DNA of 64,000 nt from Candidatus Nanoarchaeia archaeon. GTDB taxonomy: Archaea; Nanobdellota; Nanobdellia; SCGC-AAA011-G17; DATDVL01. The DNA is taken from positions 92,018 to 156,017 of the forward strand of contig DATDVR010000006.1 in assembly GCA_035289925.1 (NCBI GenBank), written 5' to 3'. The notes under the pieces are model-generated. The model saw nothing but the letters and a program-made list of their open reading frames with translations. It was not told the origin of the DNA and did not search any database. Made by a program: the position numbers and the translations under genes. Below are positions 1-59,548 of the stretch, piece by piece; the stretch's first letter is position 1; each line of letters begins with the position of its first letter.

Positions 1-166
1 ATGAAATCTAAAGACATTTTACAAACTATCCAAAGGACTTTTTACCTTTTTAAGCCTTTTTAATTAGTATGGGGTATGCTGGATTATGGAAAAAAGAATT
101 TTGGTTTATAAACCTTCACAGGCAGTTTGTCGTGAATCTAAAATTTGCGGAAAATTCGGAAGAATT

Positions 167-982
167 TTATAGAAAATCCAATGGACTCTTGACTTTCTTT
201 AGTTGCGCATTTGACACATTAACATATTTTTGGGTCGTACTTAAATCTGCGTGACCGAGTAATTCCTGAATTATTCTTATGTCAGTTCCAGCTTCTAACA
301 AATGCGTTGCAAAAGAACTTCTTAATGCATGGCAGAAAACTCTTTTCTTTATTCCAGCTTTTTTTGCAGCATTATTCACAATCTTTTGCGCCATTCTTAT
401 AGATAAAAAGCCTTTCTTTGACGGAAATAAATATTCAGAATCTTCTTTTCTTTTTTCAAGATATTTTTTCAACTTTTCAATCAGTGAAACTGACAAAATT
501 ATATGCCTGTCTTTTCTTCCCTTTCCAGATCTGACTTTGCCCATCTTTTCAGAGAAGTCTAAATCGATAATCTTCATCTTTACAGCTTCTGAAACCCTCA
601 GGCCTGAAGAATAAAGCAGCTCAACTAATAATCTGTGCTTAGGATTTTCTATTGCATCCAGCAGGGAAGACATCTCTTCTTTCGACAAGACAGTTGGAAT
701 CTTTTTTTCTAATTTAGGGGTCTTTATCTTAGCAAAGATATCCTTTTCAAGAACTTCTTTGTAAAAAAACTTTAGGGTAGACAAAATAAGCGATGTTGAA
801 GCAGGCTTTATTTTTTTCTCTGACATCATATAAGCAAGATAGCTTTTGACATCATCTTCTGTTATTGAAGGAGGCTCTTTTTTTGTATAGTTAAGAAACA
901 ATTGATTGTGGCGCATATAATTTTTAACAGTAACTTCTGAAAAGCCCCTTAACTTAAGCTCAGTTTCCAGCTTTTTCAGCAT
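167..982 (-). CDS. xerA: XerA-type tyrosine recombinase
   Basis: N-terminal SAM-like domain (LRGFSEVTVKNY); catalytic R (GLRVSE), K (GKGRKDR), HALR, LGH and Y (STTQKY); 271 aa. Confidence 0.92.
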   Translation of the reverse strand: MLKKLETELKLRGFSEVTVKNYMRHNQLFLNYTKKEPPSITEDDVKSYLAYMMSEKKIKPASTSLILSTLKFFYKEVLEKDIFAKIKTPKLEKKIPTVLSKEEMSSLLDAIENPKHRLLVELLYSSGLRVSEAVKMKIIDLDFSEKMGKVRSGKGRKDRHIILSVSLIEKLKKYLEKRKEDSEYLFPSKKGFLSIRMAQKIVNNAAKKAGIKKRVFCHALRSSFATHLLEAGTDIRIIQELLGHADLSTTQKYVNVSNAQLKKVKSPLDFL

Positions 983-1721
983 GCTCTACCTCTTCAAAAT
1001 AAACCAAGTCTGAAAGCTTCTTTTTCTCTTCAAGATTTAACTTCCTGTATAAAGTAGGGAAAAACCCGTCAATTGTTAAAATAAATTCATCGCCTTGCGA
1101 CTCTATTACAGTATCAGCAACCAGATGAAATGCTAGATAAGATGCAGCGTCCTCCAATTTATTTCTATTAATTTTTGATGTTATCCTGTAATGCATTGCA
1201 TTCAATTTTGGATGCCTCTGTGGGACTCCTTCCAAAGCAAATTTTTCAAGCTGTTCCTTTAAATTTTTTATTTCAGAGAAAGTGTAGAATCTGCAGGGGA
1301 TTTTATCCGTATTTGAATAGACAACCGCATTATATCTTACTTGTTCATATCTTTCAACTGCAATGATGTTAACTTCCGGAGATTTTCTGCTGAGTATATT
1401 TATAGTCCTTATTTTATTAACAGGAATAATCCTGCCATTTTCCAATCCTATTCCATCTTCTTTTCCAAAATATATTTTTCTATCAAGATCGGTATTTCTT
1501 GTGGAAATAATACCGTCTTCAGTTTCTATATAATAATTACATCCAATGTCGTCCAAAAGATTTAGACATTCCTTTGTTTTTTCCTTTCTTTTTTTATTAT
1601 GTCCATAAAAAATCACTGAAACTTCCATATTTTTATTTACTCTTGGCGGCAAGAAAGAAGCCTTGGCTATTGCTGAAGGCAAATTACTATTTCCATCAAA
1701 AAAATTTATTGGAAGCGCCAT
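960..1721 (-). CDS. Hypothetical protein, overlapping the xerA start (same operon)
   Basis: 253-aa ORF; no recognised motif. Confidence 0.6.
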   Translation of the reverse strand: MALPINFFDGNSNLPSAIAKASFLPPRVNKNMEVSVIFYGHNKKRKEKTKECLNLLDDIGCNYYIETEDGIISTRNTDLDRKIYFGKEDGIGLENGRIIPVNKIRTINILSRKSPEVNIIAVERYEQVRYNAVVYSNTDKIPCRFYTFSEIKNLKEQLEKFALEGVPQRHPKLNAMHYRITSKINRNKLEDAASYLAFHLVADTVIESQGDEFILTIDGFFPTLYRKLNLEEKKKLSDLVYFEEVEHAEKAGN

Positions 1722-1723
1722 TT

Positions 1724-2074
1724 TTACTTTCTTTCGTAGATAATTTTTGCTACTTTCACTTCGTCGGTAAATTCTATTTTATTTTTTGCTGCTCTTTTAT
1801 CAAGATAATTGCTTACTTTTGCTTCCAACGCTGCCAAAGGACCCCTTGCCTGATCAACAAAAGAGTCTTTTTCATAGTTCAATCTTAAAATCCAGTCATC
1901 TATTTTAGGGTCAATCCTCATAAGCTCAACAGAAGTTATTACTTTCTTTGCTTCCTGATTTTCATCAGCAATCCTTTCAATGACGACAGACTGTTCTATG
2001 CTGCTGCAGTTAGATGATCCGTATACAACCCCTGCAACGCCCAACAATCCAACCAATGTTCTTTTGTAGTTCAT
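1724..2074 (-). CDS. Hypothetical secreted or membrane-anchored protein
   Basis: Basic-hydrophobic N-terminus (MNYKRTLVGLLGVAGVVYG). Confidence 0.6.
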   Translation of the reverse strand: MNYKRTLVGLLGVAGVVYGSSNCSSIEQSVVIERIADENQEAKKVITSVELMRIDPKIDDWILRLNYEKDSFVDQARGPLAALEAKVSNYLDKRAAKNKIEFTDEVKVAKIIYERK

Positions 2075-2086
2075 TTTAAGTTCTCC

Positions 2087-2362
2087 TTAAGCAACGACTG
2101 GAATTGAACCAGTTTCGCTTCCTTTCTTTGGTTCTGCCAAAACCATTTCTTCTAATAAGTTCAATGCCGCAGGCTTTCCTTTTTCTGCTGCAGTTCTCAT
2201 TATAACGTCATGGTCAGTCATAGTTAATTGCAATTTTTCAGCTAGAAATTCTGCTCTCTTTTCAGGATCATATTTATTGATTCCTAAACCTTCGTATAAT
2301 TCTACAAGTTTTTTACTTTCAATTGGGGTGTAAGACCCTATTTCTTCTTTTGTCCATATCAT
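2087..2362 (-). CDS. Hypothetical protein, first gene of the xerA operon
   Basis: 91-aa ORF preceded by AGGTGATAGGAG RBS on the minus strand. Confidence 0.6.
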   Translation of the reverse strand: MIWTKEEIGSYTPIESKKLVELYEGLGINKYDPEKRAEFLAEKLQLTMTDHDVIMRTAAEKGKPAALNLLEEMVLAEPKKGSETGSIPVVA

Positions 2363-2381
2363 TTTAAGCTCCTATCACCTT

Positions 2382-2409
2382 GGTTCGTATAAGTTTTTTA
2401 ATATGAACC
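2382..2409. other. dif-like Xer site S1
   Basis: GGTTCGTATAA-GTTTTT-TAATATGAACC, 11-6-11 imperfect palindrome. Confidence 0.8.
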
Positions 2410-2603
2410 TCATTTAAATATCTTTCGAACTATAAATTCATTAGTTTTTATTAAAGTTGTGGAGGAAAAATTGAAAAAACTGTCAATCAAGTTGTAAGAT
2501 TTACGAAAAATTCTAGGAAACCTTCTTAAAGAATTTTAACTTTAGATTGTTAAGGCTTAGCAAAAAGCTTATAAATAAGTTAAACTTAGTCAAACTAAGT
2601 AAT

Positions 2604-2834
2604 ATGGTACAAGCTTTGATAGAATTGGACGAGAACACCAATAGGGTATTGAACATAGTGAAAGCTAAATACAACCTAAAGGACAAGGGAAAAGCAGTAG
2701 AGTTCCTTGTAACCAAGTATATTGAAGATGAAGAAGAGCCAGACTTGAAACCAGAATTCATCGCGAAGATAAAGAAGATTGAGAAACAAAAATCAATAAG
2801 GGTGAAAGACTTTGCTAAGCGCTATGAAGTGTGA
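2604..2834 (+). CDS. DUF2683-like antitoxin
   Basis: MVQALIELDENTNRVLNIVKAKYNLKDK; ATG 2604 follows TATA and operator repeats; overlaps RelE-like gene. Confidence 0.7.
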   Translation: MVQALIELDENTNRVLNIVKAKYNLKDKGKAVEFLVTKYIEDEEEPDLKPEFIAKIKKIEKQKSIRVKDFAKRYEV

Positions 2835-3121
2835 AGCAAATGTACGAACCAGACATAAAGAAAGATCTAGATAAAATATTATTTAAGCTATATAAAAGGG
2901 ATAAAGAACAATATTTTAAAGTCAAAAAGAAGATAATATATCTTCAAGAAAACCCTTTTCACGCTTATAAATTCTTGAAAGAACCGCTGCAAGGATACAA
3001 TAGGGTTCACGTAACTGGCAGCTTTGTCTTAATCTTTAGAATAAATCATACAAACAGGACTATTGAACTGAAACACTATGATCATTGGGATAATGTCTAT
3101 AAATGGAGGCCAAAAGAATGA
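2831..3121 (+). CDS. RelE/StbE (YafQ-like) toxin
   Basis: ENPFHAYKFLKEPLQGYNRVHVTGSFVLIFRI, RelE-like; 96 aa. Confidence 0.75.
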   Translation: MKQMYEPDIKKDLDKILFKLYKRDKEQYFKVKKKIIYLQENPFHAYKFLKEPLQGYNRVHVTGSFVLIFRINHTNRTIELKHYDHWDNVYKWRPKE

Positions 3122-3303
3122 TAAAGATAATACAATCGATAGTTGATTTAGAAGACAGGGAAAACAGAGTAGTCAACCTTGTCAAGGCTAAGCATGGTTT
3201 TATAAATAAATCAGACGCCATAAACAATATTATTAGAAAATATGAAGAATTAGTTCTTGATAATGTACTGAAACCAATTATGGAAGAAAAGAAACAATAT
3301 TAA
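3103..3303 (+). CDS. Second DUF2683-like antitoxin paralog
   Basis: QSIVDLEDRENRVVNLVKAKHGFINKSDAIN, similar to 2604..2834. Confidence 0.65.
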   Translation: MEAKRMIKIIQSIVDLEDRENRVVNLVKAKHGFINKSDAINNIIRKYEELVLDNVLKPIMEEKKQY

Positions 3304-3310
3304 TCTTTTT

Positions 3311-3338
3311 AATACTTCAAATGTTTGTTATACGCACC
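3311..3338. other. dif-like site S2 (one good arm)
   Basis: AATACTTCAAA-TGTTTG-TTATACGCACC; right arm reverse complement GGTGCGTATAA is 10/11 to the E. coli XerC arm. Confidence 0.6.
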
Positions 3339-4150
3339 TATTCTCCAGTTTGTCTTTTATAAAACTTATACCCAAAGAAAACTACAACTAATATAGCACT
3401 TATTATAGCCGTAATATTTGCTCCAACTTCACCAAAAAAACGTACTACTATAAATAATAATATTACACAAATGAATATCACTGCAATAATATCAAAAAAT
3501 TTTTTCCAGGGTTTTTCTCTGAATACCTCAATAATTAAAGCCATTAATGCAACAAACAACATTATCCAAGTAGCAATCCACATATCCTCACTTAAATCCT
3601 CTAAATCTACATTTAATTTTAATAGTTTATCATTCGCTTCTATAGTTTTCTTATTTGCCTCTTCTGTTTGTTTCCACAAGTCATATTGCCAACGGGGCAT
3701 TACATCAAAAGTAAAATTATAACCACCAAAATGTCTAACATAATTATTATGTGTAAATCTTCTATAAAATTCTATATCTCCTTTTTTTGATATTACTTGG
3801 ATTTTATAGTCCCCAACAGTGTCAAATTCTTCTACAAAATACTCTGTTTCATTCTTACCTATTGGTGAAATAGTAAGGTTCCTTGAAGGTTCTAAATATA
3901 CAGGAAATTCCCTTTGTGATCTAATCAGGCTTCCTTTAGGATTAAATAATAAAACTAAGATAGTATCATTTATAGTTACATTTCCAGTATTATTCAATGA
4001 AATTTCATAATAAAAAAAATCGCCAACTACTTTAGCGTCAAAGGCCTCCTTAATTAAAATCTTATGAGTTATCGTTAATTCTGATGCATTTACAATTATA
4101 GAAAAATTTAGTATTAATAAAAACAATAAAAAAAGATGTTTTTTAATCAT
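3338..4150 (-). CDS. Exported/membrane protein (signal peptide, beta-rich domain, coiled coil, C-terminal TM helices)
   Basis: Hydrophobic N-terminus and three C-terminal hydrophobic segments. Confidence 0.7.
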   Translation of the reverse strand: MIKKHLFLLFLLILNFSIIVNASELTITHKILIKEAFDAKVVGDFFYYEISLNNTGNVTINDTILVLLFNPKGSLIRSQREFPVYLEPSRNLTISPIGKNETEYFVEEFDTVGDYKIQVISKKGDIEFYRRFTHNNYVRHFGGYNFTFDVMPRWQYDLWKQTEEANKKTIEANDKLLKLNVDLEDLSEDMWIATWIMLFVALMALIIEVFREKPWKKFFDIIAVIFICVILLFIVVRFFGEVGANITAIISAILVVVFFGYKFYKRQTGE

Positions 4151-4194
4151 AGGTTGGTAAATACTATAAACTTTATAAAGGTTTTCACTAATTC

Positions 4195-5095
4195 GGTCTA
4201 GTTGAAAATCTCTATTTTCAACAAAGAAGAATTATGAATAATTCCTCTCATGTACATGTCTGATCTCTGTGTTTGGATTAATCTAGAGCTAACGCTAGCT
4301 CCATACTTTTGTTTGGTTGCACCAAACAAAGACTCGCTTATCTCCCTTCTATAATAAGTCCTTGTCCTCCAATGCTTTCTCATAATCTTCCTGTAAAATC
4401 CTTTTCTTGTGCTCTTCCTGCATGGAATCATTGAAGTGATTCCATGCTTGTAGCAAAGATGATGTACAGCTTCGCTATCATAGCCCTTGTCAGCTACAAG
4501 AATCCTTGGAGTGGCTGACAATCTTTTAAGCAAGTAAGAAACATCTTTTGTGTCATGCCTTGGCTTTGCACGAAGGCGCAAAGCCAAAATCTTCTTGCGC
4601 CTTGTGTCTACAACAGCACTTAGCTTTAAAGGCCTGCTAATTGGCTTCACTCTGTCAATCCTTTTGATGTAGTGCCAGCTAGGATTTGTCCTACTTATTG
4701 TTGTTGCATCAATGGATGCAACATTTATCTCAGCAAATAAAGCTGTCTGGGCAAACAACTTCTCAATAATCTTAGCTACTTTTTTATTCATCTTGGCTAA
4801 AGCTGAATAAGTAGGTACTTCAAATCCCAGATTATACAAAAGCTTTGCAGCTCTCCTATAGGAGAGCCTGCATGCTTGCCTTATCCAAAGGGCAAGCATA
4901 TGCTGCCAGAATTCATACTTCTTTGGTCCATAGTGATGAAACCATCTTGGCATGTTTGCTCTTCTGAGCAAACGCTTAATTTTATTTACTAGTTTTACTT
5001 CTGTTTTCATGGGTAGCTAAGTCCTACCCCCTAATGTTGCTTTACCCAAAGCACATTAGGTTATTTATATTTTTCTAGACATTTTCAACAACGCC
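4195..5095 (-). mobile_element. IS5-type insertion sequence (DDE_Tnp_1), 901 bp, 9-bp TSD
   Basis: TIRs GGTCTAGTTGAAAAT and GGCGTTGTTGAAAAT (rc); TSD CACTAATTC at 4186-4194 and 5096-5104. Confidence 0.9.
4198..5010 (-). CDS. IS5-type DDE transposase
   Basis: SIDAT, LVADKGYDS, RREISESLFGATK motifs; 270 aa. Confidence 0.9.
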   Translation of the reverse strand: MKTEVKLVNKIKRLLRRANMPRWFHHYGPKKYEFWQHMLALWIRQACRLSYRRAAKLLYNLGFEVPTYSALAKMNKKVAKIIEKLFAQTALFAEINVASIDATTISRTNPSWHYIKRIDRVKPISRPLKLSAVVDTRRKKILALRLRAKPRHDTKDVSYLLKRLSATPRILVADKGYDSEAVHHLCYKHGITSMIPCRKSTRKGFYRKIMRKHWRTRTYYRREISESLFGATKQKYGASVSSRLIQTQRSDMYMRGIIHNSSLLKIEIFN

Positions 5096-5139
5096 CACTA
5101 ATTCAAAAAATATTTAAGGATGTCCGCTTTAATATAAGG

Positions 5140-5577
5140 ATGAAAAATTTAAAGTTTGTTCCTATTGAGCCGGATGATGAAGAGCAGTTTGACATTTTTA
5201 AAACAAAATCAAAATGTTTTAATTGTAAATCTGACATAGAGTTTATTACTTATCATTCTCAAGTAAATGGATATGATAATTACTTGGGTAGTTTTCCTTT
5301 CTTGGATGAAATATTATTAAAAAAGTATCCAAATTATCTGATAAAACGATTTTCTAAAACTGCTGGAGAAGTTGTTATAAGCAATCTGTGTCGGGGATGT
5401 GACGTAATACAAGGAAATTTCTTTCAAAGTGATATTTGGAGGGAGCAACACTTTGGGCATATTAAGCTGGAATTTATTGAAACTATTAATGTTAAAATAG
5501 ATGACCTATTCGATGAAGAAGAACTAATATTATTAAATGAATATGAAAAAGAAATGTTCTTAGAAGATAATAAATAA
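5140..5577 (+). CDS. Hypothetical Zn-binding protein
   Basis: CxxC pairs (CFNC, CRGC); stop abuts site S3. Confidence 0.6.
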   Translation: MKNLKFVPIEPDDEEQFDIFKTKSKCFNCKSDIEFITYHSQVNGYDNYLGSFPFLDEILLKKYPNYLIKRFSKTAGEVVISNLCRGCDVIQGNFFQSDIWREQHFGHIKLEFIETINVKIDDLFDEEELILLNEYEKEMFLEDNK

Positions 5578-5604
5578 GGGCCTATAATTTAGATTATGTG
5601 AACC
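5577..5604. other. dif-like site S3
   Basis: AGGGCCTATAA-TTTAGA-TTATGTGAACC. Confidence 0.7.
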
Positions 5605-5689
5605 TCTAGGAAAAATAAACCCTGAGAAAATTTATTAATTTTATCTCTTTGGTATATAATTTAGCTTGTACAGGTTTAGTTAGAATAGA

Positions 5690-6217
5690 TTAAGCTTTTT
5701 CAACTTTTGAGCTATAGCATTTGTTAGTATCTGTCTGAAGAGATAACTTGCGCCAAGCGGTGGAGAAAAATGAACCTTTAGTTGGGGGCAACCCGCAATC
5801 CATCTCAGACACAATACTGTCATATTTACCTATAAAATCACCATTTATTGGATTATATACTAAAACCCCCTCATCTCTTGTAATTACAAGGACATAAGTA
5901 TGAAATTCGTCGTTTAAATAATAGCTAAAGTAGCCAAAAGGATTATAAGCCCCTGCCAAAGCATTAGAGTTTGTTAGGTAAATCTTCCCCCACATCAACC
6001 TTGTACGTTCTCTTAAATTATAAGCGCAATAATATTCGCCATTATAGTCATTTTTAATCTGCCCCTGATGGGGATTATAACTATTCTGGCAATTATTTTC
6101 TCTAAAGAAATCTTCAACTGTTGCGCTTGTTGGGGCAATATAAGGCAATAAAAAAATCATTAGTCCAATAGCTACAATTAAAACCCATACGAGTATTTCT
6201 TTATAAAACTCCTTCAT
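5690..6217 (-). CDS. Membrane-anchored Cys-containing hypothetical protein
   Basis: N-terminal TM segment; 175 aa. Confidence 0.6.
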   Translation of the reverse strand: MKEFYKEILVWVLIVAIGLMIFLLPYIAPTSATVEDFFRENNCQNSYNPHQGQIKNDYNGEYYCAYNLRERTRLMWGKIYLTNSNALAGAYNPFGYFSYYLNDEFHTYVLVITRDEGVLVYNPINGDFIGKYDSIVSEMDCGLPPTKGSFFSTAWRKLSLQTDTNKCYSSKVEKA

Positions 6218-6267
6218 TCTATAAACAACCTAGATTTTGAGACCTTTGTAGATATATAAATTTATTT

Positions 6268-6295
6268 AGTTCGTATAACCTAGCTTATCTGTACT
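6268..6295. other. dif-like site S4
   Basis: AGTTCGTATAA-CCTAGC-TTATCTGTACT. Confidence 0.7.
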
Positions 6296-6493
6296 AGACG
6301 TAAGATTTACGGCTTTTCTTCAGTAAAATTAATAAAAAGAAGAGTATTCTAAGTATTATGATAACTAGAACAAAGTCAAAAATGAGGATACCAAAAGAAT
6401 CGCTTATATTCTATATTAACAATAAAAATGATACTAAAAACTTTAATGAAAAATGGGTTAAGGAAGCTATAGCTTTTCTAAAAGGGGCCTAAA

Positions 6494-6697
6494 ATGACTG
6501 AAAAAGAGGTTGGTAAGTTTATGTTTTGCATCAATGCTATTCAAGATTCCAATGGAAATGTTGATCTAGAAACTGAAACTGCAAGTCATAACATCTCTAT
6601 TGAGTCAGTTATATTACTTATGAAGTGCTATTTAAAGTTGCAAGAACATGATTATTTTGAGGATTATAAAAACAGTGTTTCTAAGTTTAAGGCTTAG
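6494..6697 (+). CDS. Small hypothetical protein
   Basis: 67-aa ORF; its TAG stop lies inside half-site S5. Confidence 0.5.
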   Translation: MTEKEVGKFMFCINAIQDSNGNVDLETETASHNISIESVILLMKCYLKLQEHDYFEDYKNSVSKFKA

Positions 6698-6704
6698 GCG
6701 CACT
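6694..6704. other. dif-like half-site S5
   Basis: TTAGGCGCACT (rc AGTGCGCCTAA), followed by the same AGACGTAAGATTT flank as S4. Confidence 0.45.
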
Positions 6705-6767
6705 AGACGTAAGATTTCCGGTTTTTGATACGTAAAGCTTATTAAGACTATTTCCTTAATTAAGAAT

Positions 6768-6980
6768 ATGAAAAACAAATACAATGTAATAGTTGAGAAA
6801 GGTGAAGATGGGTACTTAATATCTGATGTAGTTGAACTTTCAGGATGTCATACTCAGGCTAAAAGCTATAATGAATTGCTTAAAAGAACCAAAGAAGCTA
6901 TAAAAGGCTACTTGAAAGCATTTAAAAATGAAGATGATGTTAAGACAGAATTTCTAAGTTTGCAGCAAATTGAGGTCTAG
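6768..6980 (+). CDS. HicB-like (UPF0150) antitoxin
   Basis: YNVIVEKGEDGYLISDVVELSGCHTQAKSYNELLKRTKEAIKGYL. Confidence 0.8.
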   Translation: MKNKYNVIVEKGEDGYLISDVVELSGCHTQAKSYNELLKRTKEAIKGYLKAFKNEDDVKTEFLSLQQIEV

Positions 6981-7046
6981 ATGGCAAAATTGCCCCTAAT
7001 TACCGCTGCCCTATTTGCGATGTTTATGACGTATATGATTTTTTGA
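6981..7046 (+). pseudogene. Possible truncated hicA start
   Basis: ATG directly after hicB stop encodes MAKLPLIT, like HicA N-termini, then stops after 21 codons. Confidence 0.35.
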
Positions 7047-7127
7047 AAACAGTCTGAGATTATTGTATTTGTACTTTTAAATTTCAAATGCGTAAAGCTT
7101 ATAAATATATTATACGTATAAATACGT

Positions 7128-7463
7128 ATGAAAATAACTGAAAAAGACGTAATAGCAATCAATCAAAAATTTGATGATGGGACTATAGTAAACAGAGGAA
7201 GCTTTGATTTTGCTTTGGCATCAATAAGAAAGAGCCAGGATTGGCAAGAACAAATAGCCTATCTGTTAAGGGCTTTATTGGTAGATCATATCTTTAAAGA
7301 TGGTAACAAAAGAACTGCAACTTATCTTTTAATAGATGCTCTAGAAAGGGGAAGCTTCAAATTTAATCAAGAAGAATTGGGGATTTTAACAGTAAAAATA
7401 GCAAAGGGCAATATAAATGATATAAAAGAAATAAAAAAGCTAATAGCAGGAGTGATATACTAA
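7128..7463 (+). CDS. Doc-like Fic family toxin
   Basis: HIFKDGNKRTA, the Doc variant of the Fic motif. Confidence 0.8.
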   Translation: MKITEKDVIAINQKFDDGTIVNRGSFDFALASIRKSQDWQEQIAYLLRALLVDHIFKDGNKRTATYLLIDALERGSFKFNQEELGILTVKIAKGNINDIKEIKKLIAGVIY

Positions 7464-7464
7464 A

Positions 7465-7713
7465 ATGGCTAGTAGGAAATATGACGCAAATAGGAAGATA
7501 AGCACTAACATAGACAAAAGATATCCAATTGTATTCAAAATGTTAGAAGAATATGACAAGACTCATAAGCTAAGAAAAGACAGCTACAAGAAGAAGATAG
7601 ACCTTACTATAGATACTCAAATATGGAACAGGTTCAAGGCTCACTGCAGGGAAAAGAACATCAAAATGAGCAATGTGGTTGAGAACTTGATAAAGAAGGA
7701 GATAAAGACTTAG
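7465..7713 (+). CDS. Ribbon-helix-helix protein, putative antitoxin
   Basis: C-terminal IDLTIDTQIWNRFKAHCREKNIKMSNVVENLIKKEI. Confidence 0.6.
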   Translation: MASRKYDANRKISTNIDKRYPIVFKMLEEYDKTHKLRKDSYKKKIDLTIDTQIWNRFKAHCREKNIKMSNVVENLIKKEIKT

Positions 7714-7768
7714 GGGTCTTAGAAGGAAGGTTAAGGCTATAGCCAGAGATGTAACAGTTCTTGTTTAA
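7709..7768 (+). pseudogene. Orphan 3' remnant of a paralog of 11383..11664
   Basis: LRGLRRKVKAIARDVTVLV* vs LSGLETRVKTIANDVTVLV*. Confidence 0.7.
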
Positions 7769-7781
7769 ACAAAATTCTTCA

Positions 7782-7806
7782 GGTTCGCATAAACCTTATA
7801 CAAACT
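7782..7806. other. dif-like site S6 (collapsed 3-bp spacer)
   Basis: GGTTCGCATAA-ACC-TTATACAAACT. Confidence 0.6.
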
Positions 7807-7865
7807 ATAAACTTTTCAATTTTTTAATAGAAATCTTTATAAACTATAACAAACTATAGTCTGCT

Positions 7866-8084
7866 ATGGCAACTACAATACAAGTAAGTGAAAAACTACA
7901 ACAAGAGTTAAACAAAAGAAAGCTTTACGATAAAGAGACTTATGAAGAGGTAATTTGGGGCGTCATGGAAGACAGCATGGAATTGAATGAGGAAACAAAA
8001 AAAGATATTAAAGAAGCAAGATTAGAGCTTAAAGAAGGAAAAGGAATACCTCTTTCAGAAGTTAAAAAGAAGCTGGGATTGTAA
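7866..8084 (+). CDS. RHH-type antitoxin
   Basis: MATTIQVSEKLQQEL...ETYEEVI...GIPLSEVKKKLGL; overlaps RelE start. Confidence 0.75.
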   Translation: MATTIQVSEKLQQELNKRKLYDKETYEEVIWGVMEDSMELNEETKKDIKEARLELKEGKGIPLSEVKKKLGL

Positions 8085-8332
8085 TGTATAACATAGTGTT
8101 CTCGCCAAAAGCGCGTAAACAGCTTCAAAAATTGGAAACCGATGTTCAGATAAGAATATGTAATGCCCTAGATAAAATCAAAGTAAGGCCAGAAGACTAT
8201 CTAACTCAGATGGTTGATGATCCTTCTTTCAAATTGAGGGTAGGAGATTATAGGGTCCTTATAGACCTAAACCATACAAAGTCTCAAATAGAAGTTATCA
8301 AAGTAGGGCATAGAAAAAACATCTATAAATAG
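8084..8332 (+). CDS. RelE/ParE family toxin
   Basis: YNIVFSPKARKQLQKL...FKLRVGDYRVLI. Confidence 0.85.
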   Translation: MYNIVFSPKARKQLQKLETDVQIRICNALDKIKVRPEDYLTQMVDDPSFKLRVGDYRVLIDLNHTKSQIEVIKVGHRKNIYK

Positions 8333-8343
8333 AATTCTGGTGA

Positions 8344-8354
8344 GGTGCCCGTAA
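8344..8354. other. dif-like half-site S7
   Basis: GGTGCCCGTAA, 9/11 to E. coli XerC arm GGTGCGCATAA. Confidence 0.45.
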
Positions 8355-8393
8355 ATTCACAAACCTTATAAAGCATATTCTTGAGTATATAGG

Positions 8394-8687
8394 TTGATTA
8401 AAATGGTTGAAGAAATAAAAATTGAAGGGCGTTATGAGAGATTAGAACAAGAACTTGAAAGAAGCTTCAATATAAAAGAAGGCGATTCTGAGCTTATAGG
8501 TATATCAAAATTAATTTTTCAGTTTGCGAAGCCTTTCAGTTTAAGTGATAGGGTTATGTTATCTATGGCTGCAGATCCAAGAATGGATGTTTTTGGCAAT
8601 GCCATTGGACCTTTTTGTTTATTTATTAAATATGAATTTTATGCATTAGCTTTAGCAAAATTGGCAGAGAATTATATTAAAGGTTGA
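8394..8687 (+). CDS. Hypothetical protein
   Basis: 97-aa ORF behind a duplicated promoter block. Confidence 0.55.
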   Translation: MIKMVEEIKIEGRYERLEQELERSFNIKEGDSELIGISKLIFQFAKPFSLSDRVMLSMAADPRMDVFGNAIGPFCLFIKYEFYALALAKLAENYIKG

Positions 8688-9016
8688 TAAAAATGAATGA
8701 AGTTAACCTAGAAACAAAGCTTCTTGAACAGGGATGGACTTTTTGGTTTACTGAATTAACAGTTGAACAAGCAGATATGTTAAATAAAAAATTATTTCCA
8801 AAAAATATTGGGGTAGGGTTATCTAAAGCATTCAAATATGAAGTAGCCAAAACTCCTGAAGAAGCTGAAAAGGAGTATAATAAGAGATTCCCTTTAAGAG
8901 ATATTAAGGCAATAATAAGAGAAGATGGCAGGATAGCTATTTATGGTAAAGGAGAGTTTCCTGATAAAAAAATTATGGATCATATGGTTGGTTTTATTGA
9001 TTATAGTTTAAAGTAA
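8684..9016 (+). CDS. Hypothetical protein
   Basis: 110-aa ORF overlapping the previous gene. Confidence 0.55.
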   Translation: MIKMNEVNLETKLLEQGWTFWFTELTVEQADMLNKKLFPKNIGVGLSKAFKYEVAKTPEEAEKEYNKRFPLRDIKAIIREDGRIAIYGKGEFPDKKIMDHMVGFIDYSLK

Positions 9017-9024
9017 TTTTAGCA

Positions 9025-9035
9025 GGTTCGCATAA
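9025..9035. other. dif-like half-site S8
   Basis: GGTTCGCATAA, identical to the S9 left arm, 8 nt after a stop codon. Confidence 0.6.
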
Positions 9036-9073
9036 TAACAAACATTACAATAACTGTAAGATTTTTTGTTTTT

Positions 9074-10072
9074 CTATAGAAAAACATCCCAATAGATCTC
9101 AGTAAATTCCAAGGCACTAAACCGAACAAGGCCGGCATAATCTCTAATCTCTTTGCCATTAGGTTTGGATTTATCTGCTGTTCCTAATGCTTCAAGATAT
9201 TCGGCCCTGTATTTTTTGCGTATTATCATTGGCGGGTATCCTTTCTTCAGAAGTATATAATTGAGGAGCATTCTTCCTGTTCTTCCGTTTCCGTCTGCGA
9301 ATGGATGAATCTTTTCAAATTTATGATGAAAAATTGTAGCTAAGACTAGGGGGTGCAAGGTTTCTGCATTTTTTTGGTACCATCTTATCAGCAGATCCAT
9401 ATCAGTTTTTACAAAAGGTGCAGGAGTTGCATCAAAATTGCTTCTTAAAACCCTCACATCAACATTCCTGTAGCCCTTCCTAGGGTCAATATTCTCCATC
9501 AGTTTAGAATGTACATCTATGATAAGCTCATGAGTTAATTCTTTTTTCGAGTCATGCAGACTAAAGAAGACTTTCTCTGTATTTTGAAGATCATATATTT
9601 CTCTTAAGGTTCTGCCTTTTGGGGTTATTCCTTCATGCAAAAGATTTCTAGTCTCTTGAAGAGTTATAGTATTTCCTTCAATAGAGGTTGTATTGAAGGA
9701 AAACTCCACTACAAAATTCTTTAAAGTCTCTTCTTTAGTCAATTTATCTTGCTTTTTAAACTGTTCATTATAATGTATTCTGCAAGCCTCCACTTCTTCA
9801 GTTTTATCAAGCAAGTAAGAATCTTTCTTTAATCTCAATGTCTTTGCCTTTTCCAAATAATGGTTTGACTCTAGGAATGAATGTATCTTTTTGTAAGCCT
9901 TTCTTATCTTACTTTTATATCTGGGCAAGTGTTCTAGTTTCTTTTTAACCCCTTCAATTGAATCCCCCAAGTATGCAATGTCCTTAACCAGGATTCTCTT
10001 CCCCTTTCTCTCAGAAGCCCTTAGGTAATAATAGTTCTTTCCCCCCATAGACTTCTTGTATATGTAAACCAT
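9074..10072 (-). CDS. Fic family protein (canonical AMPylase motif)
   Basis: HPFADGNGRTGR; NTTSIEGNTIT. Confidence 0.9.
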   Translation of the reverse strand: MVYIYKKSMGGKNYYYLRASERKGKRILVKDIAYLGDSIEGVKKKLEHLPRYKSKIRKAYKKIHSFLESNHYLEKAKTLRLKKDSYLLDKTEEVEACRIHYNEQFKKQDKLTKEETLKNFVVEFSFNTTSIEGNTITLQETRNLLHEGITPKGRTLREIYDLQNTEKVFFSLHDSKKELTHELIIDVHSKLMENIDPRKGYRNVDVRVLRSNFDATPAPFVKTDMDLLIRWYQKNAETLHPLVLATIFHHKFEKIHPFADGNGRTGRMLLNYILLKKGYPPMIIRKKYRAEYLEALGTADKSKPNGKEIRDYAGLVRFSALEFTEIYWDVFL

Positions 10073-10223
10073 ACATTCTACTAAGAATCCCGAGTTTATA
10101 AATCTTACCCTCTACATGGCAAATTTTTGATTGTAAGGGGTAAAACCCAGAAATTAAACAGTATTCTATATTTTTTAAGCATAAATAGAAACCTTTATAT
10201 ATAGATACGTATTATTACGTAAT

Positions 10224-11018
10224 ATGGAACTAATATCAAAAGTAAGTAAAGGAAGTAAAATGGATCAAATTTACATACCTAAAAAAAGAGCTGGTTTGCC
10301 TATCGGAGATTATGTTTTAATAACCCCTGTAAAAAAAGCAGGTGAAATAAACCTTTTTTATCATAACGTTAAAACTTTAGAAAGTATAAAGATTATGCTA
10401 ATAAAAGAAATATTCAATGCTATAAATGAAAAAATTGAATGTAGCAACATTATCCTTACTGGTTCTTTTTTAGAAAATGGATTTAAGTTTAACGACATAG
10501 ATTTATTGATAATTAATAATGAGAAAATATCTGGGAAAAAACTAAAAAGTTTGTCAAAAGAGCTTTCAGAGAAATTTAATATAAAATTCCAGGCGCTTAG
10601 TTTAGACTTAAAAACCTTAAGAGAGGGGCTTTCAACAGACCCACTATATGAAGCTATGCTAAGCAGATATGTTTCAAAGGAAAGGCTTATTTTAAATGCT
10701 AAAAGAAGAATAAACCCAAAAATATTAGATTTGCATTTAATTGAAAGTGAGACTTTAATCCATAATTTTGACTATGCTGATGGAATAGAAAAGTATTCGC
10801 TAATAAGGAACCTTATAGCCATCAGCCTGTTTTTAGACAATAAAAAAGTGACTGGAGGGAGCATAGATGTCCTTATAAAAAAGATATTTGATATATCTTC
10901 TACTGCCCTAATAAAGAACAACATGCTTAACAAACAAGAATTTCTTAAGAGATACAAGGATTTTTATAAAAAAACATTTGACAAGCTAATGGGGAAGTTA
11001 AATGACACAAAATCGTAA
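10224..11018 (+). CDS. AbrB-like DNA-binding domain fused to a minimal nucleotidyltransferase
   Basis: N-terminal QIYIPKK...GDYV; LTGSFL...NDIDLLI (GS..DxD). Confidence 0.7.
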   Translation: MELISKVSKGSKMDQIYIPKKRAGLPIGDYVLITPVKKAGEINLFYHNVKTLESIKIMLIKEIFNAINEKIECSNIILTGSFLENGFKFNDIDLLIINNEKISGKKLKSLSKELSEKFNIKFQALSLDLKTLREGLSTDPLYEAMLSRYVSKERLILNAKRRINPKILDLHLIESETLIHNFDYADGIEKYSLIRNLIAISLFLDNKKVTGGSIDVLIKKIFDISSTALIKNNMLNKQEFLKRYKDFYKKTFDKLMGKLNDTKS

Positions 11019-11343
11019 TACTTTGATTAAATTAATGATTGGAAATCTTTCAAATGCCGTTATCCATAATATACTAGAAAAAGCTATTGAAAAACATGAA
11101 TTAATAGACAAGTATAGAAAAGAAATGCAAGTTAGCATGAATGTTGCCATGAAATATCGCTCAAAAATCACCCCTTTAAATGCCTACTTGCAAACCAAAG
11201 ATATTAATTTTATTAGAGATAAAATAACCAACAAAGTTAACAATGAATTAAAGAAAAGAATAGCCAAGGGATATAGTGGAATTGATTTAGGACTAGTTTC
11301 AGAAATTGTCGAGGAATTTCTTGTAAAAGTTAAGGTAAAGTAA
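11002..11343 (+). CDS. Hypothetical helical protein, putative MNT partner
   Basis: Overlaps the MNT gene; 113 aa. Confidence 0.55.
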   Translation: MTQNRNTLIKLMIGNLSNAVIHNILEKAIEKHELIDKYRKEMQVSMNVAMKYRSKITPLNAYLQTKDINFIRDKITNKVNNELKKRIAKGYSGIDLGLVSEIVEEFLVKVKVK

Positions 11344-11382
11344 ATTCATAATCTTTATAAAGCATATTCTTGAGTATATAAG

Positions 11383-11664
11383 TTGATTAAAATGGAAACA
11401 TACGCTTATATTGTTGAAGATAGAAAAGGGAAGTACCAACTTAGAGAAAGGGAAGGAAATGATGCATACCAAGAAGATGTAAGTTTGGGAAACCAATGGG
11501 GATTTAAGGTTGTTAAGTGTTTTGTACTGCCTGAAGAGAGATCTAAAGAACTTGCAGAGATTCTTTTATCTTTGAGTCGTTTCGTAGAGGAAGGGCAAAA
11601 AGATTTAAGTGGACTAGAAACAAGAGTAAAAACTATAGCTAATGATGTAACAGTTCTAGTTTAA
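11383..11664 (+). CDS. Hypothetical protein
   Basis: 93-aa ORF; stop 11 nt before S9. Confidence 0.6.
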   Translation: MIKMETYAYIVEDRKGKYQLREREGNDAYQEDVSLGNQWGFKVVKCFVLPEERSKELAEILLSLSRFVEEGQKDLSGLETRVKTIANDVTVLV

Positions 11665-11675
11665 AAAAAGTTTAA

Positions 11676-11703
11676 GGTTCGCATAATATATCTTATACGA
11701 ACC
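11676..11703. other. Near-perfect dif site S9
   Basis: GGTTCGCATAA-TATATC-TTATACGAACC; arms extend to 13 bp (11674-11705); left arm 10/11 to E. coli dif XerC arm. Confidence 0.88.
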
Positions 11704-11776
11704 TTTTACTCGTAATTTACAGTTAACAACTATATTAATTAAAGTTACTGTTTTTGCTTAAAAGTTTTAGACTGAT

Positions 11777-12127
11777 TTAATGAGATACTTCTTTTTCCAT
11801 CTGTTGCCTGTAATATTCTTCTTGTTCTCTAAATATACTTTCGTATTGGTCCTGTAATGCGTTTTCCATCAAATATTTCTTTGACTCTTCCATCAATTGT
11901 TCTCTGTAATCTTCTTCCTGTAATTCTTTTTCCATCTCTTCCATCTGTTGTTCTCTTAAATCTTCATATTGGTCTTGTAATTCTTGTTGTTGTTCTCTTA
12001 ACATATCTTCATACTGGTCATTATATGTGGTTTGTCTATAGTAAGAAGATCTTATAGCACTTGTCATTATACTTAGAAACAGAATTATCCAAAACCAAGT
12101 CATCAAACTTCCTTTCTTATTTTTCAT
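11777..12127 (-). CDS. Membrane-anchored E/Q-rich protein with class III (pilin-like) signal peptide
   Basis: MKNKKG|SLMTWFWIIL; repeated DQYExxxREQ motif. Confidence 0.6.
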   Translation of the reverse strand: MKNKKGSLMTWFWIILFLSIMTSAIRSSYYRQTTYNDQYEDMLREQQQELQDQYEDLREQQMEEMEKELQEEDYREQLMEESKKYLMENALQDQYESIFREQEEYYRQQMEKEVSH

Positions 12128-12288
12128 AAAAATGGCAATATCCCCTTCCTTTTATTATTTTCTATTTTCTATCAACTACCAACCGTTAACTTTACAATGT
12201 ACTTTACTACTATTATGATTAATCTTTCAATCAACGCTTAAAAGTTTTAGATGACAAAGTATTTAAGATTACAAGCCATAATCAAGGC

Positions 12289-12879
12289 ATGCATATAACA
12301 AAAGAAGAGAGGCACAAGATTACAATCTTGTATATTGCTGCTATAGCTTATTTCTTGCTGTCTGCTTTCTTCTATCTAAACAAAGGAAACCAAGAGTTTT
12401 TGTACTACATTGGGCTGATGGTTATTTTAATTTCTTATTTTTACTTCAAGCATGAAGAGTTTAAATTCACTTTTGAGATCTATTTGGGACTGTTTATAAT
12501 AGGGTTTTTGCACGCTTTAGGGGGGGTTTTATACATAAATGGGGTAAAGCTCTACAACATTTACTTTTGGATATTAAAATACGACAATTTCGTGCATTTT
12601 GTTGCTTCACTGATAATAACCTTGATTGCATTCAACCTGCTAAAGCCTAATTTGGAGCAGGATTTTCTGAAAAAGCCGTGGAAACTTGGGTTCTTGATAG
12701 TGACTATAGCCATGGGTTTGGGCGCTTTTATAGAGATTGGGGAGCTGATAGCAGTTATATTTTTCCATGCTGAGCAGGCTGTCGGCACTTATTTGAACAA
12801 TGTATTGGACTTGGTTTTCAACCTTTTAGGAAGCTTGGCCGGGGCAATCTACTTGTTTTTATGGCACAAAACTCATTAA
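12289..12879 (+). CDS. DUF2238-like integral membrane protein
   Basis: Multiple TM helices; YDNFVHF and EIGE motifs. Confidence 0.6.
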   Translation: MHITKEERHKITILYIAAIAYFLLSAFFYLNKGNQEFLYYIGLMVILISYFYFKHEEFKFTFEIYLGLFIIGFLHALGGVLYINGVKLYNIYFWILKYDNFVHFVASLIITLIAFNLLKPNLEQDFLKKPWKLGFLIVTIAMGLGAFIEIGELIAVIFFHAEQAVGTYLNNVLDLVFNLLGSLAGAIYLFLWHKTH

Positions 12880-12906
12880 AAAACCTTTAATCTTTGCTTA
12901 AAAGTT

Positions 12907-13437
12907 TTAGCTCTTTCTAAAACAGAAGTATGAGATTGCTATTGCTAACACAGATCCTAAAAAGAAGAAACCGTTCCTAAAACCAGAATCTTGAATTTCA
13001 AACACTGATGAACCTGTAATAGAACTAGGCAAGTATAAGGAAGCCGTGACTAAAAGAAACAAGATGGCTGCTGCCAATGAATCTTCCAAATTATGCTGCA
13101 TTTTTTCTATTCTGCCGCCTCTCTTTTTTTCCTGTTGAACAATTCCCTTGAAGATTATTCCTTTTTTTGTGTACTTCTCAACTATCGCTTCAAATCCTTT
13201 ATATGGTAATTTTCCTTCTTCAAATGATTTATATGCATTACTTAAACCTTTACCAAGAATATAATAAGTTTCCCTATTAATTTTCTTAGCCTTAAGACTT
13301 TGCTTTAATTCTGTTAAAACACCGTAATAAAGATGATGTGCTGCTGTTTCTTCTCTTATTTCTTTATCTCTTTCTGAAATTTTGCCGTATCTTTTTCCTT
13401 TACCAGATAGAGCATGAATATACCTCATTATTCCCAT
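12907..13437 (-). CDS. Hypothetical protein with C-terminal SITG TM hairpin
   Basis: C-terminus similar to 19191..19676. Confidence 0.6.
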   Translation of the reverse strand: MGIMRYIHALSGKGKRYGKISERDKEIREETAAHHLYYGVLTELKQSLKAKKINRETYYILGKGLSNAYKSFEEGKLPYKGFEAIVEKYTKKGIIFKGIVQQEKKRGGRIEKMQHNLEDSLAAAILFLLVTASLYLPSSITGSSVFEIQDSGFRNGFFFLGSVLAIAISYFCFRKS

Positions 13438-13557
13438 ATAGATTAATAAAAAATTAAAGTATATAAGACTTTTTATTGAAAAATGGTTGGAATTTTGCTG
13501 TTCAAATTTTGAACAGTTGGGGAAAAGTATATAAAATAGGGGTTATATAAGAATAGT

Positions 13558-14199
13558 ATGCTTTCATGGTTCTTCAAAAAAGGGGATAATTCTAAACAAT
13601 TGGATACAAAATTCAAGCTTTTAGATGAAAATATAAGGGGTTCTTTTACGCATATCAAGGAAGACATGAAGAAAATAGGCGATTGGATTGATTTCTTTAA
13701 TAGCAAGGAAAAGGACCAAAAAGAGAAGTTTCAAAGGCTTGAATGGAAGATTGAGGCTCTTGAGGACCAACTTTCAAAGAAAAAAGAGTACCATATTGTT
13801 GAAAAAGTAGTTGAAAGTGAGGTCAACCGTTCAAACAGCCGTTCAAATTTTGAACATGTTCAACCGTTCAACCGTTCAGTTCAACCGTTCATGAACGTTC
13901 AACCAGGTGTTCAACCGGAATATTTCCTGAAAAAAAATCAAGAAATTGATATTTTAACACCAGCGCAAAAGAGAGTTTTAGGTTTACTTTTGTATTCTGG
14001 TGGGCCAATGGACTACCAAGAAATTGCTAGAAGATTAGAAATTAATGAGATAACTGCAAGGAGACATATGAATGATCTAAGAAGAGCAGGAATAGAGGTA
14101 AAAAGGAAACTGAGTGATAACGGGAGAAAGAACCTATTCTTCATAGATAAAAACCTAAAAGAGCAGATAGTAAAAGGCAAGTCTAAAGGTGAAAAGTGA
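13558..14199 (+). CDS. Coiled-coil plus C-terminal HTH protein with internal GTTCA repeats
   Basis: LTPAQKRVLGLL...YQEIARRLEINEITARRHMNDLRRAG. Confidence 0.75.
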   Translation: MLSWFFKKGDNSKQLDTKFKLLDENIRGSFTHIKEDMKKIGDWIDFFNSKEKDQKEKFQRLEWKIEALEDQLSKKKEYHIVEKVVESEVNRSNSRSNFEHVQPFNRSVQPFMNVQPGVQPEYFLKKNQEIDILTPAQKRVLGLLLYSGGPMDYQEIARRLEINEITARRHMNDLRRAGIEVKRKLSDNGRKNLFFIDKNLKEQIVKGKSKGEK

Positions 14200-16010: not shown

Positions 16011-17153
16011 TTACTTTATCTTTTTCAAAATATGTCTTTTTCCACGCCAATCTAAAGCATGCAAAAGAACTTCCCTTATTGTTGAAACTGGAATAACTTT
16101 GATTTTAGCTTTCAATTTTGGGGTAACTAAAACATCTTGCGCATTGGCTTTTGGGATTATAACTTCTTTTAATCCTGCTTGAATTGCTGCTTCTATTTTT
16201 TGTGTTACACCACCAATAGCTAAAACTTCTCCTCTAACTGACAAAGAGCCAGTCATGGCTACAGATTGCTTTACAGGAACTTTAGTCAAAGCTGAAATAA
16301 TTGCAGTTGCTACGGCTATTGAAGCAGAATCTCCTTCTACACCTGACGAAGCAGTCTGCAAAAACTGTACAAAGATATCATATTTTTCTTTTATGTCTTC
16401 GCCAAAATACTTCAAGATAATTGCTGAAACATTTTTTACAGCTTCTTTTGCTATTTCTCCTAATTTCCCTGTTGCAACGAACTCTGTCTTTTTGCCTCCA
16501 ATAGTTACTGCAGATTCTATTGGCAAGACAACGCCTGAATAAGAACCTTCAGATCCCATAACAGCAAGACCATTAACTCTACCAACAGAAGTTCCTGTTA
16601 TCCTGATAATGTCATATTCTTTCTTGTTTTCAATGTACTTGTCTACAATTTGTTGTTCTAAAGTTCTTGACAATCTCTTTGCCCCATAAATGTGCTTTTT
16701 TTCTACAAACTTTGATTTTTCTTCTAAAGCTAAATCGCCAGCTGCTCTTACTAAACCGCCCAGTTCTCTTAGTTTTAATGTTAATTTGCCTGCTCTTCCA
16801 GTTCTTCTTCTAGCTTCGTCAATGATTACATTTACTGCTTCTCTTGTGAAATGTGGAATTTTTTTATCTTTTTCAACTTCCTGAGCGACAAAAATTGCTA
16901 TTTTATCACGATTAGAAACATTGTCATCCATTGTTAGATTCATGTTGACTTCGTAACCATAACCTCTGATTCTAGATCTCAAAGCAGGGTGCATTTTCTT
17001 CATAGTTTCTAAAGTTCCTGCTGCAACCAAAATAAAATCGCAATTGTGAGTAATAATCCCATTAGCCAAGTAGGTTCCATTTAAAGTAGAAATATTATAA
17101 ACATAACCGTCATAATCTATTCTTCTAATATTCTTTATTTTACTTATTTTCAT
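16011..17153 (-). CDS. lon: LonB part 3: IntC of intein 2 (37 aa) plus C-extein with protease domain
   Basis: MKISK...NGIITHN|CDFILVAAG; catalytic GDSAS Ser and GGVTQK Lys; ATG at 17153. Confidence 0.9.
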
Positions 17154-18999: not shown

Positions 19000-19043
19000 A
19001 ATACTTAGAAGGTAGATGAGTTTTTAAAGATTTTGTTGGGTTT

Positions 19044-19175: not shown

Positions 19176-19190
19176 GTTGGGTTTGTTAAT

Positions 19191-39723: not shown

Positions 39724-39725
39724 GG

Positions 39726-59506: not shown

Positions 59507-59548
59507 TAATTTCACAACCTTTTTAAAGTATAAATAGTTTGCCCTATT

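Follow-up and report, generated by a model that had tools for sequence, protein, structure and literature searches.

The region considered here is a 64,000-nucleotide stretch (hereafter the window) from the genome of a Candidatus Nanoarchaeia archaeon, taken from positions 92018-156017 of contig C6 of assembly G000 (916 kb, 33% G+C, 16 contigs; completeness 88.5%); the closest genomes carry the labels Woesearchaeota or Nanoarchaeia archaea. Near its left end lies xerA, the last gene of an operon that also codes for proteins of 253, 116 and 91 aa, and 10.7 kb from xerA lies a perfect dif-like recombination site, S9, with ~9.3 kb of small gene blocks in between (Table 1). An earlier note on this DNA had proposed nine dif-like sites here (S1 to S9), lying at gene boundaries and delimiting blocks of 1-4 genes rich in toxin-antitoxin modules. 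The gene annotation agrees with this description: the sites set off units of 0.4-2.6 kb, with genes on both strands, and strong sites or arms are present at seven junctions. The general pattern is of a perfect S9 at the distal end, preceded by the left-arm-only junctions S8 and S6, as would fit insertion at dif with dif restored on one side and a hybrid site left on the other.

When the window was searched for GGTTCGYATAA-N6-TTATACGAACC with at most three mismatches, two matches were obtained where shuffles lead one to expect none: S9, which is perfect rather than near perfect as previously stated, and S1, which has two mismatches and precedes the leading gene of the xerA operon by 20 nt. The 11-nt arm, which we take to match the Escherichia coli XerC arm GGTGCGCATAA at 10 of 11 positions, was also sought singly, allowing one mismatch and using shuffles of the window as the background; it occurs 10 times against an expectation of 1.08, and eight of these occurrences fall within 2382-11703. 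The genome-wide arm scan, for which the reversed pattern served as the control, had a divided outcome: the total of 31 arms with at most one mismatch is no excess over the 39 of the control, and what stands out are exact matches and clustering, in that 13 of the 31 are exact (a composition estimate gives ~1) and eight are packed into 9.3 kb (~1%) of the 916 kb (binomial P = 7e-10, i.e. ~1e-9). The signal of the array resides in these two properties, not in the genome-wide count.

Seven of the nine proposed sites (S1, S2, S3, S4, S6, S8 and S9) are upheld. The arms at 6694 (S5) and 8344 (S7) match at 8 of 11 positions, and since such matches recur approximately every 0.7 kb we have left both uncounted; the homology of the S5 flank to 6283-6336 stems from a shared promoter motif. 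Most of the sites in the array have a single good arm. Every one is intergenic or overlaps a stop codon, and, as had been claimed, seven (S2, S3, S5, S6, S7, S8 and S9) lie within 0-13 nt of a stop codon, S2 sitting between those of two convergent genes and S3 beginning on that of the 145-aa gene; S1 and S4 are placed upstream of start codons. In S6, S8 and S9, moreover, the left arm is identical and is preceded at 10-12 nt by a TAGTTTAAA-like box, although the register of the stop codons differs.

Table 1. Genes, sites and other features of the xerA-linked array, in window coordinates (L, left arm; R, right arm).
Feature	Position	Strand	Sequence or content	Arm matches and remarks
xerA, 271-aa tyrosine recombinase	167..982	-	NCBIfam and Pfam Phage_integrase (3e-43)	
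Three lineage-specific genes (253, 116, 91 aa)	960..2362	-	open reading frames (ORFs) overlap or abut	one transcription unit with xerA
S1	2382-2409		GGTTCGTATAA-gttttt-TAATATGAACC	L 11/11, R 9/11; near-full
Cassette A	2410..3310	+	DUF2683-like antitoxin 2604-2834; YafQ/RelE-like toxin 2831-3121; second DUF2683-like 3118-3303	
S2	3311-3338		R arm TTATACGCACC at 3328-3338 (-)	R 10/11; L 5/11, unrelated; one-armed
270-aa membrane protein gene	3338..4150	-		
Multi-copy insertion sequence (IS)	4199..5095	-	DDE_Tnp_1 transposase 4198-5010	
145-aa gene	5140..5577	+	ORF and family search	no assigned function
S3	5577-5604		AGGGCCTATAA-tttaga-TTATGTGAACC	L 7/11, R 10/11; strong arm at 5594 (-)
175-aa gene	5690..6217	-	ORF and family search	no assigned function
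S4	6268-6295		AGTTCGTATAA-cctagc-TTATCTGTACT	L 10/11, R 7/11; strong arm at 6268 (+)
Two small genes (44, 67 aa)	6358..6697	+	host-type promoter motif GTAAGATTTACGG in front	
S5 (proposed)	6694-6704		arm TTAGGCGCACT	8/11; by sequence at chance level
hicB antitoxin (6768-6980) and hicA-like remnant	6768..7045	+		remnant truncated
Doc/Fic-fold toxin and RHH antitoxin	7128..7713	+	toxin 7128-7463; antitoxin 7465-7713	
Relic: 3' end of a 90-aa gene copy, with S6	7714..7806	+		homologous to 11610-11703
S6	7782-7806	+	GGTTCGCATAA-acc-TTATACAAACT	L 11/11, R 9/11; full site, 3-nt spacer
DUF7557 antitoxin and ParE toxin	7866..8332	+	antitoxin 7866-8084; toxin 8084-8332	
S7 (proposed)	8344-8354		arm GGTGCCCGTAA	8/11; unsupported as a site
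Two genes (94, 107 aa)	8403..9016	+	after 55-bp promoter block 8351-8406	no assigned function
S8	9025-9035	+	GGTTCGCATAA	perfect L arm; R 4/11, i.e. no right arm
332-aa Fic-domain protein gene	9074..10072	-		
Nucleotidyltransferase-like gene (264 aa), 113-aa gene, 90-aa gene	10224..11664	+	promoter block 11340-11395 before the 90-aa gene	
S9	11676-11703		GGTTCGCATAA-tatatc-TTATACGAACC	L 11/11, R 11/11; sole 11+11 site in 916 kb

The array might, in principle, be an artefact, made up of chance matches in AT-rich intergenic DNA or of a contig chimeric across the IS. Single arms that are genome-wide no commoner than their reversed control, and the abundance of 8/11 matches, would fit the former. 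As for the latter, the IS causes contigs to break and is found at many contig ends of the G000 assembly; in L087, a 116-kb contig assembled from a different sample, it is joined to the end of contig C9 (a pyruvate-dehydrogenase/lipoate region) instead of to 5096 onwards, either as an IS-mediated variant or rearrangement or as a mis-join. Yet chance does not account for the excess of arms over the shuffles, the lack of full sites in these or the clustering; two other assemblies, L094 and L104, cross the IS independently and in the same order as the G000 contig; and the same conserved gene block stands beside xerA in the relatives. The linkage across the IS rests on the G000 assembly, L094, L104 and this order-level synteny, and we regard an artefact as close to refuted.

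The recombinase had been taken for an archaeal XerA, and this is borne out by a score of 254.8 bits against the NF040815 (recomb_XerA_Arch) equivalog, whose cut-off is 220. Its best solved relative is the XerA of Pyrococcus abyssi (4a8e), to which residues 4-264 align, and the LRVSE, GKGxKDR, HxLRxxxATH and LGHxxxxTTQxY regions are conserved, that is, the catalytic regions of tyrosine recombinases are present. The integron-integrase model TIGR02249 yields 222.4 bits in two matched stretches, below its cut-off of 265. As judged from its sequence, the recombinase is a bona fide archaeal XerA and not an integron integrase. It is the only Xer in the assembly, and apart from the IS transposase there is no other recombinase in the array (2410-11675). 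A permissive Rfam scan of positions 1-14000 revealed no attC site, with one unrelated weak match and no other known RNA or site family. With neither attC sites nor an IntI signature, a reading as an integron is ruled out, and of the integron/pdif-like platform proposed earlier it is the Xer-type sites bounding modules that stand. An island targeted to a tRNA gene is likewise ruled out, as the window contains no tRNA, nor do the edges of the arrays of the relatives.

S9 is probably the chromosomal dif: no other site in the genome is perfect, and its spacer, tatatc, is similar to those of dif in the relatives (tgtatc, catata). S1, which separates the leading gene of the xerA operon from its promoter, is probably a XerA operator as well. 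The relatives have an S1-equivalent site or half-site at the same place relative to xerA, and these counterparts, lying between promoter and start codon, may serve as operators too. The other three genes of the operon returned no family matches and have no homologues in the xerA loci of the relatives. GC skew on the single contig gives no clear placement of dif at the replication terminus. At 21586-27817, ~10 kb from dif, we noticed cdc6/orc1 and two genes for DNA polymerase D subunits, so that the xerA/dif locus appears to lie near a likely replication origin and not opposite to it.

Orthologues of XerA were recovered from 40 of the 41 genomes searched, at 40-72% identity, and 72% was also the best value in metagenome and species-genome scans for closer kin. 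Their genes adjoin a conserved block of two HTH genes, small genes and an intein-bearing Lon, and the gap between xerA and the Lon-containing block is 12.6 kb here as opposed to 1.3-2.7 kb in six relatives. A stringent search of 201 genomes of the order found a perfect-type site in 20 (17 with one copy, two with two and G000 with three); the reversed-pattern control matched one genome. A full site is located upstream of xerA in all 11 relatives that were checked, at distances from 59 bp to 4.8 kb. We then scored 42 xerA loci of relatives, several of which come from the same genera and are thus not independent, by a single rule (a full site of at least 16/22 or a single arm of at least 10/11). 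The upstream side of xerA yielded 54 sites over 273 kb and the downstream side 5 over 207 kb (~8-fold denser upstream); at least one upstream site was present in 27 loci and at least two in 17. On this comparative evidence, the predicted dif of this DPANN order is located just upstream of xerA.

The synteny comparison recommended by the earlier note came out in its favor: not only is there this order-wide upstream enrichment, but in two genera, g35 and g13, conserved dif-like sites by xerA bracket species-specific genes, with whole-unit differences whose breakpoints lie at sites. The three species of g35 share a site with the spacer 'tccctc' that differs among them at a single arm base and has unrelated left flanks. 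Two of these species share a second site with the spacer 'tggtgc'; the interval separating it from the first holds a single TPR gene in one species, and in the other a third site along with seven different genes. In the nine species of g13, an arm lies ~15 nt upstream of the xerA ATG in every case, between a TATA-like box and the start codon; a 'tataca' site is kept in six (with a spacer that varies in two) and a 'catatc' site in four. The genes between and beyond these conserved sites are mostly unique to a species, and one HNH/zinc-ribbon cassette occupies three different positions in the g13 arrays. Homologues of the Doc/RHH pair adjoin xerA in genome G010. In genome G032 an identical spacer and arm, 'cttcac TTATACGAACT', precedes each of two toxin-antitoxin cassettes, one of which is of the DUF7557/ParE type found in the window and lies beside a half-site.

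Such sites are not confined to the xerA locus. All eight of the sites in the genome that have a 6-nt spacer and match at no fewer than 17 of 22 positions fall within three clusters, namely the xerA array, contig C3 at 16.1-19.3 kb (16141-19282; L043 7142-10283) and contig C9 at 5.4-9.2 kb (5467-9209; L044); with other spacer lengths there are five matches in total, three of them within these clusters. Hence the statement that no comparable arms exist elsewhere except in a miniature inverted-repeat transposable element (MITE) holds for the window and fails for the genome. The sites on C3 and C9 follow gene 3' ends and occur among MazF, VapBC, NYN, HicAB, Fic and winged-helix genes; three sites on C9 have the spacer core 'ggatg' in common, in direct orientation, and the hicB cassette of the window is 70% identical in nucleotide sequence to the hicAB cassette of C9.

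We posit, with moderate confidence, that serial integration, in the manner of dif modules or of integrative mobile elements exploiting Xer (IMEX), has built up a cassette island linked to xerA and dif at this chromosomal locus, and that the island is now largely locked. Circular DNAs bearing a dif-like site, often with one good arm, would have recombined via XerA with dif or with a secondary site, and each integration would have left one hybrid site and regenerated a good one, as in IMEX and in the XerC/D-dependent dif modules of Acinetobacter. The growth of the island is thus reconstructed from the sites together with the comparative data. At most junctions an intact 11-nt arm stops exactly at the border of arm and spacer. 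As neutral decay would hit both arms, this asymmetry makes S6, S8 and S1 look like hybrid sites cut at the XerA cleavage position. When the left arm of S1 is joined to the right arm of S2 a 21/22 site results, which would fit an insertion of cassette A into one former full site. The array sites cannot readily recombine together, because each now has a different spacer, and the present array would accordingly be a stable record of past insertions and not a busy shuffling platform. XerA-mediated insertion would not have been the only process at work: the array has also been shaped by the IS, by partial overwriting at 7714 and by promoter blocks held in common with other loci.

Several observations weigh against this reconstruction. 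Two of the nine proposed sites are at chance level. The spacers within the array are all different, and tyrosine recombinases normally need matching ones. The segment 7714-7806 duplicates 11610-11703, comprising the last codons of the 90-aa gene and the whole of dif minus three spacer bases; its homology ends at the outer edge of the right arm, but its left edge is not at a site, which implies that other processes also reshaped the array. The cassettes carry their own promoter motifs, which are common across the genome, so that they have either long been resident or were acquired from close kin. In eight other genomes of the order, no sites were found to flank the homologues of the Fic cassette. 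Finally, the alternative join of the IS in contig L087 and the constancy of the array within the population, considered below, belong here.

Several of these points could also be accommodated by an ordinary flexible or defence island that by chance stands beside xerA and dif, with genes gained and lost by homologous recombination at conserved flanks, the IS or illegitimate recombination, in which the arms are decayed duplicates of dif or of the operator rather than scars of crossing over. The off-site edge of the relic, the presence of a multi-copy IS with an alternative IS-mediated join, and the invariance of the array among samples are all in keeping with it; the promoter blocks shared with other loci would be substrates for homologous exchange, and the g13 half-site between TATA box and ATG, present in all nine species, has an operator-like position. 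Nevertheless, we consider it unlikely. Had the sites simply decayed, their 11/11 arms would not give way to unrelated sequence exactly where the spacer begins; additional full sites, each with a conserved spacer of its own, are kept from species to species as the intervening genes turn over; sites at cassette 3' ends recur at three loci of the genome; and an operator role accounts for one site per genome, not for arrays.

Both the motif GTAAGATTTACGG and the 55-bp block seen at 8351-8406 and 11340-11395 were entertained as cassette-specific attachment sites and ruled out: the former is a promoter-associated repeat found genome-wide, and the latter, likewise promoter-associated, comprises a promoter and start codon that precede unrelated genes at 80-93% identity at no fewer than six loci (elsewhere, for example, C2:1015, C2:42789, C10:67577 and C12:5239). 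The two arms of the window outside the array (19118 and 39666) both lie in copies of the 132-bp MITE, which derives from the IS of the array and shares terminal repeats with it. The MITE carries an exact GGTTCGTATAA arm, which the full-length IS lacks, and has five copies (window 19060-19195 and 39610-39745; C5:170560, C7:36935 and C10:84041). Being one family that shares the IS terminal repeats, these were counted as one event and rejected as independent extra dif arms.

That XerA at present captures, excises and reorders cassettes among S1-S9 in an active, integron-like manner, as the earlier note had supposed, seems to us quite improbable. Exact-protein look-ups retrieved contigs of the same population from the ERZ49030xx, ERZ272547xx and ERZ285635xx-638xx assemblies, JGI 3300002502 and Logan runs. 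Those that span the array stem from samples of at least four data sets; outside the IS they are 100% identical to the window, and none has gained or lost a cassette. This identity across samples indicates that the population is clonal and says little about longer time scales. With spacers that all differ and an array that is identical across these assemblies, the claim of ongoing capture and shuffling in this genome is not supported. Cassettes with their own promoters in both orientations, a XerA below the integron-integrase cut-off and the lack of attC sites further tell against an active platform. On the other side are the recombinase gene at the end of the array, the sites at cassette 3' ends, the abundant toxin-antitoxin cargo and the spacers shared elsewhere ('ggatg' in three sites on C9, 'cttcac' in two in G032). 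Three independent assemblies, moreover, end inside S1, at window positions 2392, 2405 and 2418, the first being the last base of the left arm and hence the arm/spacer border, and the overlap of two scaffolds in one sample is confined to 2338-2392. These ends may point to a branch of the assembly graph and a possible structural variant at S1; as support for Xer activity they are only suggestive.

In a more far-reaching version of the preferred reading, i.e. of the serially built and now largely locked island, Woesearchaeales-type DPANN archaea would use their housekeeping XerA to drive a conserved platform for gene capture at xerA/dif. Here, cassettes would arrive with one-armed sites, secondary chromosomal sites with distinct conserved spacers would act as separate 'addresses' that prevent the array from collapsing, and the site near the promoter would tie the expression of xerA to the process, the whole being an Xer-based functional analogue of the integron. 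We offer this tentatively, as a possibility that we rate below even odds.

Several known systems offer parallels. First, in Acinetobacter, dif (pdif) modules are mobilized by XerC/XerD and feature numerous 28-bp Xer-type sites and toxin-antitoxin cargo (PMC6449649, PMC13141974, PMC12907356). The island resembles them in that 28-bp Xer-type sites bound small accessory modules with toxin-antitoxin cargo and no dedicated recombinase inside, and in that module content varies between related replicons. It differs in being archaeal with a single recombinase, XerA, and chromosomal, anchored to xerA and a true dif (the Acinetobacter modules were first described on plasmids); moreover, it has many one-armed junctions, and the rule of alternating C/D-D/C orientation has no counterpart in it. 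Second, IMEX such as the CTX, TLC and VGJ phages of Vibrio, the gonococcal island and a Legionellales element integrate at dif by means of the host Xer, leaving a hybrid site and a regenerated dif, form arrays by serial integration and tolerate an attP with one poor arm (PMC5357621, PMC9765430, PMC4246890). The island as we reconstruct it would share the use of the host Xer, the hybrid site with regenerated dif, the serial array beside dif and the one-armed partners. Its units, on the other hand, are gene blocks without replication or virion genes, known from integrated sequence alone, and its host is an archaeon without FtsK. A search for viruses or plasmids with the same dif gave as its sole match, a perfect one, positions 4412-4439 of IMG/VR contig L086, which is high-GC, evidently bacterial and unrelated.

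Third, the archaeal integrons of Ghaly et al. 2022 use IntI and attC. With integrons the island shares the position of the recombinase gene beside the cassettes, the sites at their 3' ends and the enrichment in toxin-antitoxin cargo. Unlike integron integrases, however, XerA lacks the IntI-specific domain (around patch III) and is only 271 aa long, and the sites are of the 28-bp double-stranded Xer type without attC structures; integron cassettes, too, are mostly promoterless, co-oriented and Pc-driven, whereas those of the island have their own promoters and both orientations. Fourth, the XerA/dif resolution systems of Pyrococcus, Sulfolobus and Thermoplasma have an orthologous XerA and a single perfect 11-6-11 dif (PMC2958812; PMC8371274). 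In Thermococcales dif is not beside xerA and is described as single copy, whereas here it is linked to xerA and accompanied by secondary sites; a 2021 review of archaeal tyrosine recombinases likewise describes dif as present once and assigns XerA no role other than that of a resolvase. Fifth, XerS/difSL and XerH/difH consist of a single recombinase and a dif genetically linked to the xer gene (PMC2731167, PMC3325230). They are like the present system in having one recombinase with dif linked to its gene, and unlike it in that their hosts are bacterial. We know of no cassette arrays described between the xerS or xerH genes and their dif sites.

In the literature searched we found no description of XerA-linked site arrays in DPANN or other archaea, as the earlier note had surmised for DPANN, and the island is an archaeal variant of a theme that, as dif modules and IMEX, has so far been bacterial. 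If a XerA-linked island does recur across this DPANN order, the hijacking of Xer would extend to Archaea and to hosts without FtsK control. It would also provide a route by which ultra-small symbiotic archaea with genomes of ~0.9 Mb could gain toxin-antitoxin and accessory genes, and xerA with its site array would be a simple marker for locating their flexible gene pool in metagenomic data. Testable predictions on the mechanism of XerA are provided by the one-armed junctions and the distinct conserved spacer sets.

A few further observations concern the surroundings of these elements. On contig C5, at 58325-59686 (L045 3325-4686), there is a second, distant tyrosine recombinase of 453 aa; an exact GGTTCGTATAA arm lies 2.7 kb from it in a divergent promoter region, and the sites C5:62380 and C5:65687 in its vicinity are not at cassette ends. 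Throughout the genome, intergenic DNA contains dozens of copies of a motif G(G/T)AAGATTTACGG (e.g. window 2494, 6300 and 6709; C5:62362; C7:39887), usually 10-20 nt upstream of a TATA-like box and often after a repeat CTTAGCGAGGTTGTCACGTGTCT...; the motif may be a genome-wide promoter-proximal element. The C3 and C9 clusters contain a Fic/membrane gene pair flanked by two inverted copies of a winged-helix gene end with its site. The far edge of the g13 variable region is occupied by an element of ~170 bp (L066-L069; L067 7470-7643), 76-89% identical between species, which is not a tRNA. Lastly, a small protein with a zinc ribbon and an HNH-like domain recurs in the xerA-linked arrays of distant genera (L025 7131-7652; G103, G185 and G122 of g13).

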